Source of the DNA: a virus
Length of the DNA stretch: 64,000 bases
Virus record (IMG/VR): IMGVR_UViG_3300042691_031577
Coordinates: 32,001 to 96,000 of that record
Reading direction: 5' to 3' (one strand)
The notes under the pieces are model-generated. The model searched no databases, was not told where the DNA came from, and saw only the letters and a program-made list of their open reading frames with translations. Position numbers and translations under genes: made by a program. How positions within the stretch are numbered: position 1 is the first letter of the stretch; the number at the start of each line of letters is the position of its first letter. Positions 2,693 to 33,950 of the stretch are shown piece by piece.

Positions 2693-3054
2693 TACTGTTG
2701 TTTTCTTTGTAATTCTAACATTTTATCTAATGCTAATATCATTTGGGCGGCTTTATATAAATAACTATTAGCGTCTTTAGCTACTTTAGCTATATCTTCA
2801 TTAGTAGAATATTTAAATGCCTGTACTTCTCTTCTGTATTTTAAAACATTTCTTCGTATTTCATCAAATTTAGGAAGTGCTTCAAACTCTTGTGTATAAG
2901 CGCCGGTTTCAGGATCCATAGAAGTTTTTATACTTTTATATCCTCTTTCAAAAGCCTCATCACCTTTTTTAGGTTTAAAAGCAGCTACTTTTTCACCACT
3001 TTTCCCAGTTACAGGGATTTCAGCTTCATTTAATATATCTAATAATTTAATCAT
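2692..3054 (-). CDS. Putative internal head protein with MIKLLDILNE leader (start reassigned from 3135)
   Basis: ATATTTA-N5-ATG immediately before 3054; shared leader motif. Confidence 0.6.
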   Translation of the reverse strand: MIKLLDILNEAEIPVTGKSGEKVAAFKPKKGDEAFERGYKSIKTSMDPETGAYTQEFEALPKFDEIRRNVLKYRREVQAFKYSTNEDIAKVAKDANSYLYKAAQMILALDKMLELQRKQQ

Positions 3055-24669: not shown

Positions 24670-25686
24670 CTAATCCAAGCCTGAAAGTTCGGTATCATCT
24701 TTCTTCAGATCTACCTCAATTTCTTTCATCGTGTCTGCTGCCCATTTCTTTTGAGCTGGGGTTAATTTATTATTAATGATGTTTTCTATAAATAGAAGGA
24801 AATTTTTATCGTCTAATTTATATACTTCAGCAAAGAATAATTCACGAACACGAGCATCTTCTATATTACTTTGGTTATATAAGTTTGATAAAGCATCATA
24901 AATAAATTTACCATATTGAAAATCACGAGGTTCGTTTGATACTTTATCTACTTTACCAACAATAGCTTTATTTTGTTCTTTATCAGTTCCAAATCCTTCT
25001 GTTCCTACTATTTCATATAATCCTTTTACTATCTCATGAAATAACATAGGAAAACATATAGCTCTTGCTTTAATAACAAATCTATCTTCTTCTTCATCAT
25101 ACACCATTTCAGATGATCCACCACTAATATTTTGTTTTTGACCAAGAGCCGCTAACATCATAGCGATAGCATTCTCATCATCATATATACCAAAAACTAG
25201 TTTCATTATTTCGTTGTATTTTTCAACTAATTCCGGACTTAAATCATCTAAATGTTCTCTAAATAATAAGAAACCAAAAGTTCCACGTACTGATGCGCCT
25301 TGAGTGATACCGTTGATTATACGGCGTTTTTTCTCCATAGCTTCGGTATCAGTTGATGGTATTTCGTCTATAGATATTTCATCTTCATCTTCATTTTGTT
25401 GAACTTGACCCATACTTACTATTTTAGCATCTATTTTTACATTAGCATAATCTAAAATAGGGTAAGCTTCTCTAGCCATAATTTCAGCTATCATTGCTAA
25501 TTCAATACGGTAATCAGATTCAGCCTCAATAATTTGACTTAGTAATTCCTGAGAACGCATCATTGTTTGCATTAGATTTTTGTTACCTAACATAGCACGC
25601 AATGATTCACCTGACTTACCTTTTAAGGCAGCCATTGTTTCAGGGCTGAATATATCTTCGTATTCTACTTCTAATAAACGTTTCAT
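24670..25686 (-). CDS. Hypothetical protein with MKRLLE leader
   Basis: 338-aa ORF; KRRIINGITQGAS, FHEIVKG. Confidence 0.6.
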   Translation of the reverse strand: MKRLLEVEYEDIFSPETMAALKGKSGESLRAMLGNKNLMQTMMRSQELLSQIIEAESDYRIELAMIAEIMAREAYPILDYANVKIDAKIVSMGQVQQNEDEDEISIDEIPSTDTEAMEKKRRIINGITQGASVRGTFGFLLFREHLDDLSPELVEKYNEIMKLVFGIYDDENAIAMMLAALGQKQNISGGSSEMVYDEEEDRFVIKARAICFPMLFHEIVKGLYEIVGTEGFGTDKEQNKAIVGKVDKVSNEPRDFQYGKFIYDALSNLYNQSNIEDARVRELFFAEVYKLDDKNFLLFIENIINNKLTPAQKKWAADTMKEIEVDLKKDDTELSGLD

Positions 25687-26159
25687 TATTTTGTTTTTTT
25701 AGCTTTCATAAAACGAGCAGTAATCTTATCAATCATTTCCTCTTCCTTTAAATTTTTAGGAGCAGGTTTTACATCAGGATTACCAATTCTTCTACGTTTA
25801 GGTTCGTCTGGAGTCACTTTAGGTCTAGGTAAAACTGCTGGTTCACTTGGTGTAGTAGCTGGTTTAGGTTGATTTTCGTTTAGTTCTTTACGAATTATTT
25901 CACGAATAGCTTCGCGTAGTTGTTTAATTTTCATATTTTCTTTTAATTTAGTTCTAGGTAATTTCATTCCTGCTACCGCAAAATTTGATGGAATTAGGTT
26001 TAGGCGTTGCTCTAATGCATTATCAGGAGCAATGGCGCGTTTTTCAACCCATAACCATTTAAGATATTGTGGATCAATTATCATTATATCAGATACTAAT
26101 CGGTTTTTATATTTACCAAATGGTATTTTAGATGATAATGTTAAAGTAACAGGGATCAT
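25686..26159 (-). CDS. Fusion: PFGKYK/YLKWL domain (DUF3820 / exonuclease X C-terminal-like) plus leader-bearing Pro-rich protein
   Basis: IPFGKYKN...DPQYLKWL; internal MKIKQLREAIREIIRKELNE starting at 25934. Confidence 0.55.
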   Translation of the reverse strand: MIPVTLTLSSKIPFGKYKNRLVSDIMIIDPQYLKWLWVEKRAIAPDNALEQRLNLIPSNFAVAGMKLPRTKLKENMKIKQLREAIREIIRKELNENQPKPATTPSEPAVLPRPKVTPDEPKRRRIGNPDVKPAPKNLKEEEMIDKITARFMKAKKTK

Positions 26160-27511
26160 GCCAATAAATATTCAGCAACATATATTCCATGCGCTCCTGA
26201 TACTGTGATACCACGAGCTGATAAAGCATCACCAACAAAATGCACATTTGGATATTCAGTTAATGCTAAACTATTATAATCAACTAATGGTTCAGGACTT
26301 AAATATTTTACCTCGGGTATATACATGCCCCAGTCATCACCAAAGTTAAATACTTCATTCATTTGTTCAATAAAGTTAGTTATATAAAATGCATACTTAC
26401 CTAATACTTTATCAAAATCTTCTAAATCATCAGTTTGATATGCTGATACAACTGCGCCTTCTGATGTTATACCTGGCGTACGAGTTTTATTTGGTGAATA
26501 ATATAATCCTTTACCATCAACTTGTAACTGTCCTACTACATGACGTGACCACTCAAACGGATTTTCAATACCTTTAATTTCCATTAATATACCAAAATTA
26601 GTCATATCATTGCGATACTCTTCACCTTTTTTCGCATGACCATTGTAAGTAATATCACCATAAGTTTCTTCAACAGCCACATAGGCAGCGTTATTGTTAG
26701 TACAAAAACTACGCAAAGATACGTTATCAAATTTTTGATATAGTTTAAAATCATAAGAGACATCAATTAATTTTTGGAAATATTTTTGTGGTGCTTCAAA
26801 ACGAACACCTATTTGAACTGATTTGGGTTCAGTTGGTAATTTATAATCATTTGATAGCTGTTGAGCAAAGTCAATACCTGATTTACCTACAGCAAATATG
26901 AGAGTATCATATTCGATCTCAGTGTTAATATAAGGTCTAAAATTAGCCAATCCGCTTTCTTTTCCTAATTTATCAAATCTATCTACTATTGTATTATCGA
27001 CAAATAATACTATTTGTTTATCAAAATCAATAGATGTAACTTCACAATTCCAACAAAATTTAACACCTTTATCTAACAAATATTGATACCATGCTTTAGC
27101 AATCTCGTGCAAGAAATTGGATCCTATGTGCCATACAGGAAACATTCTTAAACCAAAATATGGTTTAATAAATTCAGGTTCTTCCTGAGGATCAGACATG
27201 AATATTTCTTCTGGTTTAGGATGGAAACGAGTAAAATTATCTACTACTTGTTTCATTAATTCCATTGCTTTGTCCTCACCACAATATTTTGATAATTGAC
27301 CTCCAATTGCTGTGTGATAAGTAAGTTTACCATCTGACCACCCACCTGCTCCTAACATACCTGTCATTACCTCTTCAGGTAAACGATTATGTGGGTCGTT
27401 GCCTTTATCTATGATAGTGATTAATTCACCTGGGTATCCATTGTCTACTAATTTGGTAGCGGCATTTATACCTGCAACACCAGCACCTACGATTACTATT
27501 TTTTTATTCAT
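26156..27511 (-). CDS. FAD/NAD(P)-dependent oxidoreductase
   Basis: IVIVGAGVAG Rossmann motif, GAGGWSDGKL, GVRFE, RSFC, FVGD...RG. Confidence 0.85.
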   Translation of the reverse strand: MNKKIVIVGAGVAGINAATKLVDNGYPGELITIIDKGNDPHNRLPEEVMTGMLGAGGWSDGKLTYHTAIGGQLSKYCGEDKAMELMKQVVDNFTRFHPKPEEIFMSDPQEEPEFIKPYFGLRMFPVWHIGSNFLHEIAKAWYQYLLDKGVKFCWNCEVTSIDFDKQIVLFVDNTIVDRFDKLGKESGLANFRPYINTEIEYDTLIFAVGKSGIDFAQQLSNDYKLPTEPKSVQIGVRFEAPQKYFQKLIDVSYDFKLYQKFDNVSLRSFCTNNNAAYVAVEETYGDITYNGHAKKGEEYRNDMTNFGILMEIKGIENPFEWSRHVVGQLQVDGKGLYYSPNKTRTPGITSEGAVVSAYQTDDLEDFDKVLGKYAFYITNFIEQMNEVFNFGDDWGMYIPEVKYLSPEPLVDYNSLALTEYPNVHFVGDALSARGITVSGAHGIYVAEYLLA

Positions 27512-27553
27512 ACTTTATAAATTTAATATCTTTATTTTGACTTTCAAACTAAG

Positions 27554-27627
27554 GTGGCCCACCTTTTAGGGGTGGGCCACAGCTCCATAATTTTATCTCT
27601 TACGAGCGACCGGCTATGAATCGGTCT
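27554..27627 (-). ncRNA. Candidate structured RNA: pseudoknot, GNRA hairpin and terminal hairpin
   Basis: GACCG/CGGTC stem; loop UCAUAGC complementary to GCUGUGG; CUC-GUAA-GAG; 10-bp hairpin with CCUAAAA loop. Confidence 0.5.
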
Positions 27628-27642
27628 ATAAATTATTTATTT

Positions 27643-28014
27643 TTATATCATCTTTATATTAGCTACAAATTCTTTTACGTAATTATCTATTTTATTTTTC
27701 TGTTTTTCGGCTTCTTCTTTAGTAAATAATGTTACTTTAATATCCCCCATAGGATGATTAAATAAATCATTTTTAGTTTTATATTGAGCCGGGATACTAC
27801 TCCCGTCTTTGTATGTACCTATAAAATATCGTCTAACTTTATCTCCATATATTTTATCAACGTTTATATCGTTAATATTTACTTCTAAGTCTTTTAACTT
27901 ATTTATAGTTTTTTCTACTTGTTGATATTTTTTAAGATCCTCTACAGGAATTAACTCAATGTAGTATTTTTTATTACTATCTATTTCTTGGATTATGTTT
28001 ACTAACTTAATCAT
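27643..28014 (-). CDS. Hypothetical protein with MIKLVNIIQE leader
   Basis: Leader motif. Confidence 0.6.
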   Translation of the reverse strand: MIKLVNIIQEIDSNKKYYIELIPVEDLKKYQQVEKTINKLKDLEVNINDINVDKIYGDKVRRYFIGTYKDGSSIPAQYKTKNDLFNHPMGDIKVTLFTKEEAEKQKNKIDNYVKEFVANIKMI

Positions 28015-28451
28015 TATTGTACATTATATTCGTTATTACCAATTTTTAGTTTAGTAATAGTATTAACGTTTATCATTCTGTATCCACCTGTTTTTACATC
28101 ATATACAGGAATTAATCCTTTTTCATCTGGATTGTAAGGTAATTCGCCACCTTTTAAATAAACTTTAACACCTAAACGAGCATTCATTACGCGAGTAGTA
28201 CCATCTTTTTTAATAAAAGTTACAGTAAAAAACTTACCTTTAGTATCTTTAATTAATTGTTTAGCTTGTTCTTTAGTAATAGACCCAGCTGGGGTTTCAG
28301 GAGTTTCAGCTTCTGATGGTGCTTCTTCTGGTGAAGGAACATTAGCTGGTTCTTGTCCCGGTCCTGGGGTAATAGGAGGTAAATCTTCTTGTTCTTTAAG
28401 ATATTGAGATATAGTTTCTCTGATTAATTGGCGTAATACTTTGCTGTTCAT
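28014..28451 (-). CDS. Leader plus WYL-like/Sm-like SH3 barrel protein
   Basis: LRQLIRETISQYLKE; FFTVTFIKKDGTTRVM, VYDVKTGGYRMIN. Confidence 0.6.
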   Translation of the reverse strand: MNSKVLRQLIRETISQYLKEQEDLPPITPGPGQEPANVPSPEEAPSEAETPETPAGSITKEQAKQLIKDTKGKFFTVTFIKKDGTTRVMNARLGVKVYLKGGELPYNPDEKGLIPVYDVKTGGYRMINVNTITKLKIGNNEYNVQ

Positions 28452-31355: not shown

Positions 31356-33950
31356 TTAACTATTTTTTATTTCTTCAATATGTTTTTTCAATTCGTCAAC
31401 TCTATCAGGATTACGTTCGATATATTCATTGAATATATAATTGCGTATTTCTGTTAAATTACGTTGTCTTAATGCGGCTACCAAATTAGCAGGACTATCT
31501 AATTGAAATGCACCGTTTTGTGTTAATAACCAGTGGCTATTTCCTGGTTGGGCTACTATAGATGCTACTAAATTGCCTGATTCTAATTGGATACCATATA
31601 TGGCACTAGGGCCTACTATTCGTACATAATCAACGTGACCCAAATTACCTAATAGATTATCGCGGCGTGATACTCCTCTATCTGTATTTAAATTTCCTCT
31701 AGTAGAATCACCGAAGAATTTAGCACGGATATTTACAGGTAATTGGTTAAATGAATTTAATAAATTACTATTTTCTAAAGTAGTTTGTAAATCATCACTT
31801 ATATTACCTTCAATTGGTCTATTAGCACCACCTGCTGGTCTTCCTCTTCTACCGGTTCCTGCTGCTGGTACTCGTTCACCTGCTCCTAATTGAGCTGGTG
31901 TTGGGCGAGGAGTAGTTGTTCTAGGAGCTCTAGCTTGTAATACTCTTCCTGTTTTTTCTGATATTCTAAAACTTTCTGCAGGGTTAGCTGTGTTTACAAT
32001 GTATATTTTGTTATCTACTACTTTTAATCTATATGTAGAATCTTCTGTGTATGGTAAATCAGGGATACTAGCTAATGCTAGTTTATCTTTATATCCTACT
32101 TGCCATTGGTTTTGTGAAAATATACTTCTAGTAGTATTGTTGTCCAATTTTATATTATTATCATTTAAAAATTGTTTATATGCTAAACCTACTTCAGGAC
32201 TATAAGAAAATCTTATTTCTTCCATTTTATCTGTTTCATCCGAATATCTAAAAGCTTTAAACTTAAAAGAAGAAGGAATATCAAACACGTATAAGTTTCC
32301 ATCATACGTAGATATACCTTCTACTCCTCTCATCAATTTACTTTTAGGAACATTAGATAATATCTTAGAAGAAATTTCACTATTAAATAAAGGTGATTTA
32401 TTAAAAATAGAAGTTATTAAATTATTTTGAACTTCTTCATTTGATGCTGCTTCTTCAACAAATTTATTTTTAGCAGCTATTACATTTTCATTACTAGTAT
32501 CAGCAGGAATAATACTGTTTCCTTCAACTTGGTATATTTTAAGTCTATTTCCTGAGGTATCAAAAAGTACTTCAGTATCTCCTATTTTTATTATTTTCTT
32601 TGATATATCGTTAGATGTTCTAGCTTTATCAATAATTCCGCTTATTGCGGTATTATCTAAATTGTTTGCCTGTATAGCACGTGCTAGTGAATCTAAAGGT
32701 ATATCACTTATGTTTGGGTAATCAAATAAATATTTTTGTGTTCTTTTAGATAATTTAACATCCTTATATGTTTCTTCTTCAGTAATAACGTCAATGTATG
32801 TTCCTGTTCTATCGTATGATATATTTACTATAGTTCTACCATCTTCAGTTACATAAAGATTATAATTACTATCAGTAGGTACTTTACCAGTTTTAACTAA
32901 AGCTTTAGCAAAATCAAAGTTAAACTCTTTGTTCAAGATATTTTCTCCAGTAACATTTATAGGATGACCGGGAGCATTAACTTTTGCTAATAATGATTTT
33001 TGGTATTCTGGTTTAAATATTTCTATCTGTTTTAATAAATTATCAAAACCAAGAATCCACGGATTTTGAAATATCCATTCTGCTAATTTATCATATTTAG
33101 GAAGAACTTTAACAATAAATGAGTCAGTAGATAAATCCCTAAATAATTCATTGCTTGAATATCTACTTGCTATATAAGAACCTCTTACAGATATGTAAAG
33201 TTTTTTCTCTTCAAAATCTAAATCATTAGCCCATTCTCTAAAACTAATACCATTTTTAAATCTTTTTTCTACATTTATTTCTGCTTGACTTATAGGAATA
33301 TGCTTAAGAATACTTTTTACATTATCTATAGAATTTAAATAAGGTACTTCATCAAGTAATTTATCAAAATCCATTTCTTTAGATTCATGAGGACTATTTT
33401 TACGATTAGTATAAACATATCGTCCATTATTTCTTGCTTGAATAGCAACGAAACTAAGAGGATCACTATCTGGGAGATTGGTATTTCTAACTAAGTAAAA
33501 GTTAGGATATCCTCTTCCGGGGTCAAATCGATAATTTCCAAATGATCCTCTAGTAATACACCATCTTTCTCCAGCACCATATCTTACACATTTTCCTTCT
33601 ACATCACCGTTATATATAACAATACCATCTTCATTATACACCATATCTGGAGTAGGTACTATAGTAACTTTTTCTTTTTCAAAGCCTGGTTTAGATGAAA
33701 CTATTTTTAGTAGTTGTTTTAATGAGTACTTACTTAAATCTTTTTCAGAGACGTTTGGGTCTTGCTTAAATTTAGTATCAAAAACAGTAATAGCCTTTTT
33801 AATTTCATCATCAGAAATAGTTATATTAAAGTCTTCTGCTTCTTCCTTAAATTTCTGGGTTAATGCTTGTACCACTTTTTCACTCATTGCCTCAGTTAGA
33901 AAAGGCCAATTAAGTACTACATGTTCTATTAATATGTGTATATTATTCAT
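31356..33950 (-). CDS. Large hypothetical protein (864 aa) with YG.G.RWCIT motif and RRGRP AT-hook
   Basis: Long ORF; FLTE near N-terminus, NLTE near C-terminus. Confidence 0.65.
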   Translation of the reverse strand: MNNIHILIEHVVLNWPFLTEAMSEKVVQALTQKFKEEAEDFNITISDDEIKKAITVFDTKFKQDPNVSEKDLSKYSLKQLLKIVSSKPGFEKEKVTIVPTPDMVYNEDGIVIYNGDVEGKCVRYGAGERWCITRGSFGNYRFDPGRGYPNFYLVRNTNLPDSDPLSFVAIQARNNGRYVYTNRKNSPHESKEMDFDKLLDEVPYLNSIDNVKSILKHIPISQAEINVEKRFKNGISFREWANDLDFEEKKLYISVRGSYIASRYSSNELFRDLSTDSFIVKVLPKYDKLAEWIFQNPWILGFDNLLKQIEIFKPEYQKSLLAKVNAPGHPINVTGENILNKEFNFDFAKALVKTGKVPTDSNYNLYVTEDGRTIVNISYDRTGTYIDVITEEETYKDVKLSKRTQKYLFDYPNISDIPLDSLARAIQANNLDNTAISGIIDKARTSNDISKKIIKIGDTEVLFDTSGNRLKIYQVEGNSIIPADTSNENVIAAKNKFVEEAASNEEVQNNLITSIFNKSPLFNSEISSKILSNVPKSKLMRGVEGISTYDGNLYVFDIPSSFKFKAFRYSDETDKMEEIRFSYSPEVGLAYKQFLNDNNIKLDNNTTRSIFSQNQWQVGYKDKLALASIPDLPYTEDSTYRLKVVDNKIYIVNTANPAESFRISEKTGRVLQARAPRTTTPRPTPAQLGAGERVPAAGTGRRGRPAGGANRPIEGNISDDLQTTLENSNLLNSFNQLPVNIRAKFFGDSTRGNLNTDRGVSRRDNLLGNLGHVDYVRIVGPSAIYGIQLESGNLVASIVAQPGNSHWLLTQNGAFQLDSPANLVAALRQRNLTEIRNYIFNEYIERNPDRVDELKKHIEEIKNS

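Follow-up and report, generated by a model that had tools for sequence, protein, structure and literature searches.

A phage RNA element in which a covarying pseudoknot competes with a predicted terminator upstream of an oxidoreductase operon

Known compact RNAs and the architecture of the phage element

When a phage carries a riboswitch class, this is usually a copy of one from a host, and the pathway involved can normally be told from what a riboswitch binds. Three families with compact aptamers, preQ1-I, SAM-II and SAM-V, combine a short P1 with a 3' tail rich in A and a 3' strand complementary to the P1 loop, and in each of them the aptamer abuts the expression platform. We describe here a ~90-base RNA element on the minus strand (27627-27554) of a viral sequence that shares with these families, which were compared by description only, the short P1, an A-rich stretch and the pairing of the loop with a 3' strand. 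Throughout the text the window denotes the whole 64,000-nt stretch of DNA that was analyzed, positions 32,001 to 96,000 of IMG/VR record IMGVR_UViG_3300042691_031577, and coordinates are those of the window. The element differs from preQ1-I, SAM-II and SAM-V in that its pseudoknot is longer (6-7 bp), its linker of 15-27 nt tolerates a hairpin, an extra 3-bp helix (X:Y) makes it a kissing-loop complex, and it has no Rfam match. Specifically, Rfam 15 gave no matches at gathering thresholds anywhere in the window, and at E <= 10 the region 27480-27680 gave chance-level matches far below threshold with no riboswitch or ribozyme family among them. This agrees with the preliminary description of the locus, which could not place the RNA in a known riboswitch or ribozyme class.

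In the guanidine-IV (mepA) riboswitch, which is a validated system, a ligand-promoted kissing loop blocks completion of the terminator stem, which leads to read-through (PMC11611296). The phage element resembles this system in that two hairpin loops would kiss, hinder a terminator and allow read-through, a behavior that in the phage element is predicted from sequence. Guanidine-IV is a transcriptional ON switch under kinetic control, and the same is proposed below for the phage element. The two differ in that the phage RNA has no sequence or model match to the mepA motif (cmscan, E <= 10), in that its X:Y helix is distinct from the terminator and competes with it for the Y strand, and in that it is found in phages, where it lies upstream of a promoter.

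A further comparison is with PeSLs, the composite terminator/promoter stem-loop motifs of T4-like phages (PMC4122927). As in these motifs, the locus described here has a predicted stem-loop terminator fused to a promoter-like motif at a cassette boundary, with variable flanking genes and signs of recombination. However, PeSLs are without a pseudoknot domain and are dispersed in many copies, whereas the present element is single-copy, is tied to one gene, and has a covarying fold that competes with the terminator. The T4 gene 32 mRNA pseudoknot, mentioned in PMC10690425 as an autoregulatory operator, is likewise an H-type pseudoknot that lies between genes of a large myovirus and precedes a specific one of them. 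In contrast to our element, where the downstream gene codes for a flavoenzyme and the platform is a predicted terminator, that operator controls translation of SSB via its own protein product. Note that PMC10690425, a 2023 catalogue built on IMG/VR, reports >8,000 unnamed candidate structured RNAs and that the present motif may be among them; our literature search by motif string and topic, with the tables of that catalogue outside the comparison, did not find a description of the motif.

The element occupies an intergenic gap on the minus strand that is bordered on its 5' side by the stop codon (27645-27643) of a 123-aa ORF and on its 3' side by the ATG (27511) of an oxidoreductase gene. P1, the pseudoknot and a GC-rich hairpin could all be read from the sequence. 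Ahead of P1 is a conserved, single-stranded 5' flank (27627-27635; ..AAnnUAU followed by the A of AGA) made up of invariant or nearly invariant alignment columns, in which the UAA is in relatives often the stop codon of the upstream gene and the AGA shows no variation across the alignment. The P1 hairpin (27608-27626) has the arms GACCG (27626-27622) and CGGUC (27612-27608), which are 94% paired among copies, and by sequence reading a 9-nt loop AUUCAUAGC (27621-27613). This loop contains the 5' strand of the pseudoknot, UCAUAGC (27613-27619), which pairs with GCUGUGG (27583-27577) in 7 bp that include two G-U pairs. The two strands are separated by a length-variable linker (27588-27607) that consists of an invariant G (27607), a GNRA mini-hairpin CUC-GUAA-GAG (27606-27597) and an A-rich part (27596-27588). 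The linker is followed by X (UGG, 27585-27587), which is the 5' strand of the 3-bp helix P2, by an A and the 3' pseudoknot strand (together 27577-27584, in which the A, G, G, U and G are invariant), and by Y (CCA, 27573-27575), which completes P2 as its 3' strand and also contributes to the 5' arm of the final hairpin, P3.

P3 (27554-27580) has a 10-bp stem and a 7-nt loop, with GUGGCCCACC (27580-27571) as its 5' arm and GGUGGGCCAC (27563-27554) as its 3' arm, and the GUGG of the 5' arm is common to the pseudoknot strand. A terminator scan picked up this hairpin with 10 pairs, 8 of them G-C, and the tail CUUAGUUUG (27545-27553). It is a GC-rich stem-loop with a U-tract directly after it, as expected of an intrinsic (Rho-independent) terminator. 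Folding of a 98-nt stretch gave -33.3 kcal/mol as compared to -18.9 +/- 2.8 kcal/mol in 200 shuffles (z = -5.1), and the GC content of the element is 50.6% versus 31.2% for the window, which is in the top 1% among 77-nt windows. The preliminary description had reported a 7-bp H-type pseudoknot with two G-U pairs, a 3' pseudoknot strand running into the 5' arm of the final hairpin in the manner of riboswitch platforms, a weak U-tract, and a GC-rich island in AT-rich DNA. All of these features are present in the window copy as they were reported, and its tail is indeed weaker than in most relatives.

Covariation and two mutually exclusive folds

Homologues were collected in several steps. A search of viral contigs with the oxidoreductase protein gave 580 related stretches, 80 of which were taken, and the element was recognizable by blastn in ~60 of these 80. 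An RNA pattern made from both pseudoknot strands brought in at least 119 more viral stretches, sampled in fresh and marine waters, and a covariance model (R1) combined with an nhmmer profile then yielded 186 copies, of which 148 are distinct. When 54 homologues were folded with RNAalifold, the consensus that the program chose was the pseudoknot pairing itself. In this 54-sequence alignment the pseudoknot helix is 99.4% paired and shows compensatory changes at three of its six pairs (C-G to U-A, A-U to U-A and G-C to A-U). P1, the pseudoknot and P3 jointly have 93% standard pairs versus 27-57% with slid partners, and their covariation score was reached in none of 500 shuffles. The variable pair of P1, which occurs as A-U, C-G, U-A and G-C, covaries and, at 1.64 bits, exceeds every other column pair in mutual information, and the P3 stem also covaries, often with G-U at positions where X pairs in Watson-Crick fashion.

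By parsing all copies on fixed anchors we found the additional X:Y helix, in which the 3 nt just 5' of A-GCUGUGG pair with nt +2 to +4 after this strand. X and Y occur as 13 complementary types, including UGG/CCA, UGC/GCA, GAC/GUC, GAG/CUC, GGU/ACC, GGA/UCC, GGG/CCC, UAG/CUA, GGC/GCC and UGA/UCA. They are fully paired in 83.8% of the 148 distinct copies versus 20% with shuffled partners; the maximum in 2000 shuffles was 30%, and slid partners gave <= 17.6%. The three X:Y pairs rank second to fourth in mutual information, directly behind the variable pair of P1. Note that shuffle-based covariation statistics such as these ignore phylogeny and that the 13 compensatory types of X:Y are the stronger argument. 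Since pairing of X with Y places the pseudoknot strand in a closed 9-nt loop, the fold is an intramolecular kissing complex of the P1 and P2 loops. The fold put forward in the preliminary description was therefore right as to P1, the pseudoknot and P3 and incomplete in that it missed this covarying 3-bp helix. Its inserted GNRA hairpin is present in the window, but it is not a conserved part of the RNA: the hairpin occurs in just 30 of the 148 distinct copies and is thus an optional insertion. The check that it had proposed, a covariance model built from phage homologues, brought out compensatory changes in P1, the pseudoknot and P3 as well as in X:Y.

Several unpaired nucleotides are invariant as well, specifically the AGA before P1, AUU at the start of the loop, the G after P1, the A before the pseudoknot strand and the GC after it. 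A 26-nt core has 97% pairwise identity versus 51% at third codon positions of the adjacent gene, a gap that is partly due to how the copies were found, and the core is under strong purifying selection. As far as can be judged from its sequence, the element has the conserved, aptamer-like domain with covariation and invariant unpaired nucleotides that is expected of riboswitches in general. Three other pairings were tried and rejected. An AU helix that encloses P1 in the minimum-energy fold of the window copy requires pairing of the 5' flank with the linker, which is no better than with shuffled partners. A helix between the flank and the tail is likewise unsupported when pairing energies are compared with those of shuffled partners. 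An alternative pairing of the loop, UUCAUA with UAUGGA, is complete in 16 of the 148 copies and is lost wherever X differs, and is thus a lineage-specific pairing.

Small ribozymes are common in phages, and this raises the alternative that the element is a self-cleaving ribozyme of pistol-like topology that processes a polycistronic transcript ahead of the oxidoreductase cassette. As in pistol, the P1 loop engages a strand immediately 5' of a second hairpin in a pseudoknot of 6 bp, and there are many invariant unpaired nucleotides. However, pistol has a P2 that encloses the pseudoknot strand and P3, and this defining helix, between the linker/X and the tail, is unsupported here (-0.70 kcal/mol versus -0.96 kcal/mol with shuffled partners), with X pairing inside the P3 arm instead. 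No ribozyme family of Rfam 15 was matched even at E <= 10, and a ribozyme would have no evident need for a competing terminator fold. We therefore consider self-cleavage to be highly improbable.

The pairings that are supported by covariation fall into two states, with state A comprising P1, the pseudoknot and X:Y, and state B comprising P1 and the terminator P3. As Y and the pseudoknot strand are common to both folds, states A and B cannot coexist. When the 3' half was folded for every copy, Y was inside P3 in 90.5% of copies, and at least three of the six pseudoknot-strand nucleotides were inside the P3 stem in 82% of copies, so that the overlap with the terminator arm seen in the window copy is general. 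All six are inside the stem in 20% of copies; these are marine lineages in which the stem AGCUGUGGCCUCC/GGGGGUCACAGCU is followed by seven U. At least five U are present within 9 nt after the stem in 82% of relatives, and the median energy of the P3 hairpin in relatives is -18.8 kcal/mol. The element thereby has an expression platform that excludes the aptamer-like fold through the shared Y and pseudoknot strands, as riboswitches generally do. Selection is maintaining both folds, which we predict from these sequence comparisons to be a kissing-loop antiterminator and an intrinsic terminator. In the window copy state A is ~15 kcal/mol less stable than state B, which indicates that state A could matter only during transcription or when it is stabilized (kinetic control). 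One lineage, with X = GGG and Y = CCC (L135, L107, L164 and L190), has no ordinary P3 after Y; in this lineage a CCCC that follows the loop region and a GGGG ~25 nt further on may form a helix instead, enclosing the -7 box of the promoter-like motif described below, and this lineage may have a different expression platform.

The competition between the two folds also bears on the alternative that P3 terminates constitutively and that the upstream domain is a structured 3' end or a small RNA, such as a stability element, a protein decoy or a trans-acting sRNA, with termination unaffected. The position of the element at the 3' end of the upstream unit, a few nt from a stop codon, and the promoter that follows it are compatible with such a role, and the conserved 5' flank could be a processing site. 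However, once P3 has formed it bars X:Y and much of the pseudoknot, so the terminated RNA would not display the conserved fold. Furthermore, there is no conserved promoter upstream of the element, and the element travels with the downstream gene and not with any upstream gene. We consider this alternative to be unlikely.

Distribution, gene association and the downstream promoter

The gene downstream of the element codes for a 451-aa FAD/NAD(P)-binding oxidoreductase (26156-27511, minus strand; Pfam and PHROG matches) and belongs to an operon of three tightly overlapping genes. The association is exclusive: in 185 of the 186 copies this same oxidoreductase follows within 2 kb and in the same orientation, and in the one remaining copy the contig breaks off first. 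Position upstream of this gene, which had been described from the window alone, is thus a consistent link to one gene of the kind expected for riboswitches. Among loci that were found by the RNA pattern alone, the oxidoreductase is directly downstream in 82 of the 111 with a scored downstream gene. In contrast, the upstream genes fall into 37 unrelated clusters, with the element starting a few nt from the upstream stop codon, and besides the oxidoreductase we found no partner gene that is consistently linked to the element. A coupling to upstream translation was considered and rejected. The upstream gene has a stop codon that begins 8 nt ahead of AGA in 55 of 145 copies (38%), and as a conserved UAA will be in frame in about one third of cases by chance, this gives no support for translation coupling. 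A leader peptide was rejected as well, since X varies and the AUG overlapping it in the window is therefore not conserved.

The Pfam and NCBIfam matches of the oxidoreductase cover only the N-terminal dinucleotide-binding (Rossmann) motif, and a sequence search of the PDB gave no match. The AF2 model of this 3NLC/COG2509-like flavoprotein (pLDDT 88) has as its closest fold 3NLC (TM 0.70), the uncharacterized FAD protein VP0956 of Vibrio, and the next fold matches are generic flavin monooxygenases and dehydrogenases. A tblastn search of GenBank phages found only relatives of ~25% identity, in Campylobacter myoviruses, where they are annotated as 'NAD(FAD)-utilizing dehydrogenases', and in gut phage contigs. 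With a family match by the N-terminal motif only and with remote fold and phage relatives, the gene gives no firm clue to a ligand. Two small neighboring proteins carry recognizable domains, specifically a WYL_2 (Sm-like SH3) domain in the product of 28014-28451 and an ExoX-like C-terminal motif in that of 25686-26159, both on the minus strand. The 123-aa ORF directly upstream of the element (27643-28014) has no family match.

The element is in effect confined to phages. A pattern scan of one genome for each of 185,579 bacterial and archaeal species gave 67 matches, 66 of which are at chance level by the model, and the sole model match in cellular genomes is on a 1.9-kb contig binned with a Maribacter MAG. 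With one tiny MAG contig as the sole non-viral copy, there is no host pathway that would point to a ligand. A blastn search of GenBank phages with the element region gave no match. The source record is a 110-kb viral contig, estimated to be 66% complete, that codes for T4-like head, portal, terminase and baseplate proteins. A single copy of the element was found in the window, and there is no second one elsewhere in the record. Nearly all genes of the window are on the minus strand; in 1-64000 this holds for 67 of 69 ORFs >= 100 aa, with structural, replication and nucleotide genes co-oriented. This strand bias places the element inside one very long co-oriented array.

A promoter-like motif separates P3 from the oxidoreductase gene (27518-27548, minus strand), consisting of TTTG (27548-27545), a 19-nt spacer and TAAATTTA (27525-27518), with 6 nt remaining to the ATG at 27511. 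The separate downstream promoter of the preliminary description is thereby borne out as a conserved motif, since TTTG-N19/20-TAnnTT[TA][AG] is found downstream of 107 of the 148 distinct copies versus one in shuffled and none in reverse-complement controls. The distance from the motif to the ATG ranges among copies from ~5 nt to >20 nt, and in compact lineages the TTTG sits within the terminator loop. A fixed internal spacing, a variable distance to the ATG and a TTTG in the terminator loop fit better with a promoter than with an RNA signal. The Bacteroidetes sigma-A consensus consists of a -33 TTTG and a -7 TANNTTTG, and in F. johnsoniae the last base of the -7 box is a nearly invariant G (PMC6847099). 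TTTG with a 19-20 nt spacing is present in 106 of the 107 matching copies, and the motif resembles the Bacteroidetes consensus except for the last base of its -7 box, which is A and not G. Judged from these motifs, a flavobacterial host is plausible. Note that a promoter between the terminator and the gene would leave the element outside the 5' UTR of the gene's own transcript. Thus, while the element is located upstream of the gene on the same strand, only read-through transcripts would carry it, and it could act only on transcription that arrives from upstream, which is unusual for a riboswitch.

Four other composites of a GC-rich hairpin and TTTG-N18-21-TAnnTTTA precede genes in the window (62716-62686, 60267-60236, 59782-59751 and 9471-9441, all on the minus strand), sometimes with the hairpin in the promoter spacer or with the TTTG in the hairpin loop. 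These composites look like PeSL cassettes with a Bacteroidetes-like -33/-7 promoter. In three relatives (L040, L041 and L052) the oxidoreductase itself is found behind a plain hairpin GGCCUUAGGGCC and the promoter motif, with the P1/pseudoknot/P2 domain deleted and the 5' flank UAACAUAU kept, ~80 nt upstream of the start at 3001. These loci would be natural controls that lack the aptamer-like domain. The plain composites elsewhere, together with the relatives that lack P1, the pseudoknot and P2, indicate that this domain is an add-on to an ordinary terminator.

Rearranged copies are also observed. Locus L078 (1591-1932 and 2222-2312) has a tandem duplication, in which a duplicate of the oxidoreductase N-terminus, truncated to 90 aa, comes after the first copy. 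Only the P1 half is kept at L056 (2452-2518) and L140 (4588-4628), and at L039 (1449-1536) a complete second copy precedes a small gene of another kind. Second and partial copies along with the tandem duplication are signs of recombination at the element. In ~30 copies a Pyr_excise-like gene (pyrimidine-dimer DNA glycosylase, T4 endonuclease V; phrog_624/phrog_1183) is located between the element and the oxidoreductase (L008:2483-3034, L154:13430-13837 and ~28 other loci), after the promoter and in an operon with the oxidoreductase, and in a few copies a homing-endonuclease-like or other small gene takes its place. The glycosylase-like insert is a hint of a possible link between the cassette and DNA damage or repair.

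These observations lead to the alternative that the locus is a DNA-level recombination cassette only, a PeSL-like composite used for gene shuffling whose upstream part has no function as RNA. The highly variable upstream neighbors, the partial copies, the tandem duplication with a truncated oxidoreductase, the similar hairpin-promoter composites elsewhere in the window and the description of PeSLs in T4-like phages (PMC4122927) would all fit with this. However, the compensatory changes are strand-specific and conserved G-U pairs are present, so that it is RNA helices that are being maintained. The element is also found in one copy per genome, unlike the dispersed PeSLs, and conservation of its core goes far beyond what homology for recombination needs. 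A purely DNA-level role is accordingly very unlikely.

A candidate conditional terminator at a phage cassette boundary

The two folds and their mutual exclusion make it probable that the element is a conditional transcription terminator of some kind. Our main reading, to which we give a probability of roughly 0.4, is that it is a cis-acting, riboswitch-like conditional terminator with a small-molecule trigger that is located at the 5' boundary of the oxidoreductase cassette. By analogy, the invariant unpaired nucleotides and the exclusive gene association would be those seen in metabolite riboswitches. The more specific proposal of a phage-only riboswitch class, in which a kissing-loop aptamer binds a small molecule and gates read-through at a terminator/promoter boundary, is a tentative one. 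The putative ligand may be a flavin, a nicotinamide cofactor or a signal derived from nucleotides, tied to the reaction of the oxidoreductase.

According to this riboswitch-like reading, an ordinary terminator/promoter boundary would have gained a sensor domain whose folding competes with the terminator stem for its 5' arm. When RNA polymerase arrives from the upstream genes, P1 would emerge first, followed by X, the pseudoknot strand and Y. P1 and P2 (X:Y) would then fold and a kissing interaction of 6-7 bp would join their loops, giving state A, which would occupy the Y and pseudoknot strands that are needed for the 5' arm of P3. Should state A hold for long enough, P3 would not nucleate and polymerase would read through into the oxidoreductase operon. 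A small molecule would most likely stabilize state A via the invariant unpaired nucleotides around the kissing helix. Should state A not be held, we infer that the more stable P3 together with its U-tract would end transcription shortly ahead of the promoter that belongs to the gene. Read in this way, the switch would be ON for read-through.

What weighs most against the riboswitch reading is that a promoter-like motif separates the switch from the gene. An alternative is a two-state terminator that works without a metabolite, in which the fold is read by a phage or host protein, acts on RNA polymerase or simply delays P3, with read-through following the infection programme (for example early versus late). 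An element that lies between transcription units and upstream of a promoter is in a sensible place for temporal control of read-through, and the evidence for two exclusive folds applies equally to such a terminator. The restriction to phages and an oxidoreductase function that suggests no ligand are also in its favor. However, the invariant unpaired nucleotides around a compact pseudoknot resemble small aptamers more than protein operators, and no candidate partner gene besides the oxidoreductase is consistently linked to the element. We regard a trigger without a metabolite as doubtful, though less so than a constitutive terminator with a structured 3' end.

If the riboswitch-like reading is true, then the metabolic state of the infected cell would set how strongly the phage expresses a flavoenzyme operon, and in some lineages the coupled operon includes a pyrimidine-dimer glycosylase-like gene. 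A class that is confined to phages and tied to a phage-specific flavoenzyme would be unusual, and if the element is a riboswitch its ligand would give a handle on the oxidoreductase. The element would also add a very small natural kissing-loop antiterminator in which alternative helices show three-way covariation among X, Y and the terminator strand, and it would illustrate the acquisition of a sensor by an otherwise ordinary terminator/promoter boundary cassette of large myoviruses. Were the trigger a protein or kinetic, the element would still offer an abundant and clean system in which a pseudoknot and a terminator compete during transcription.
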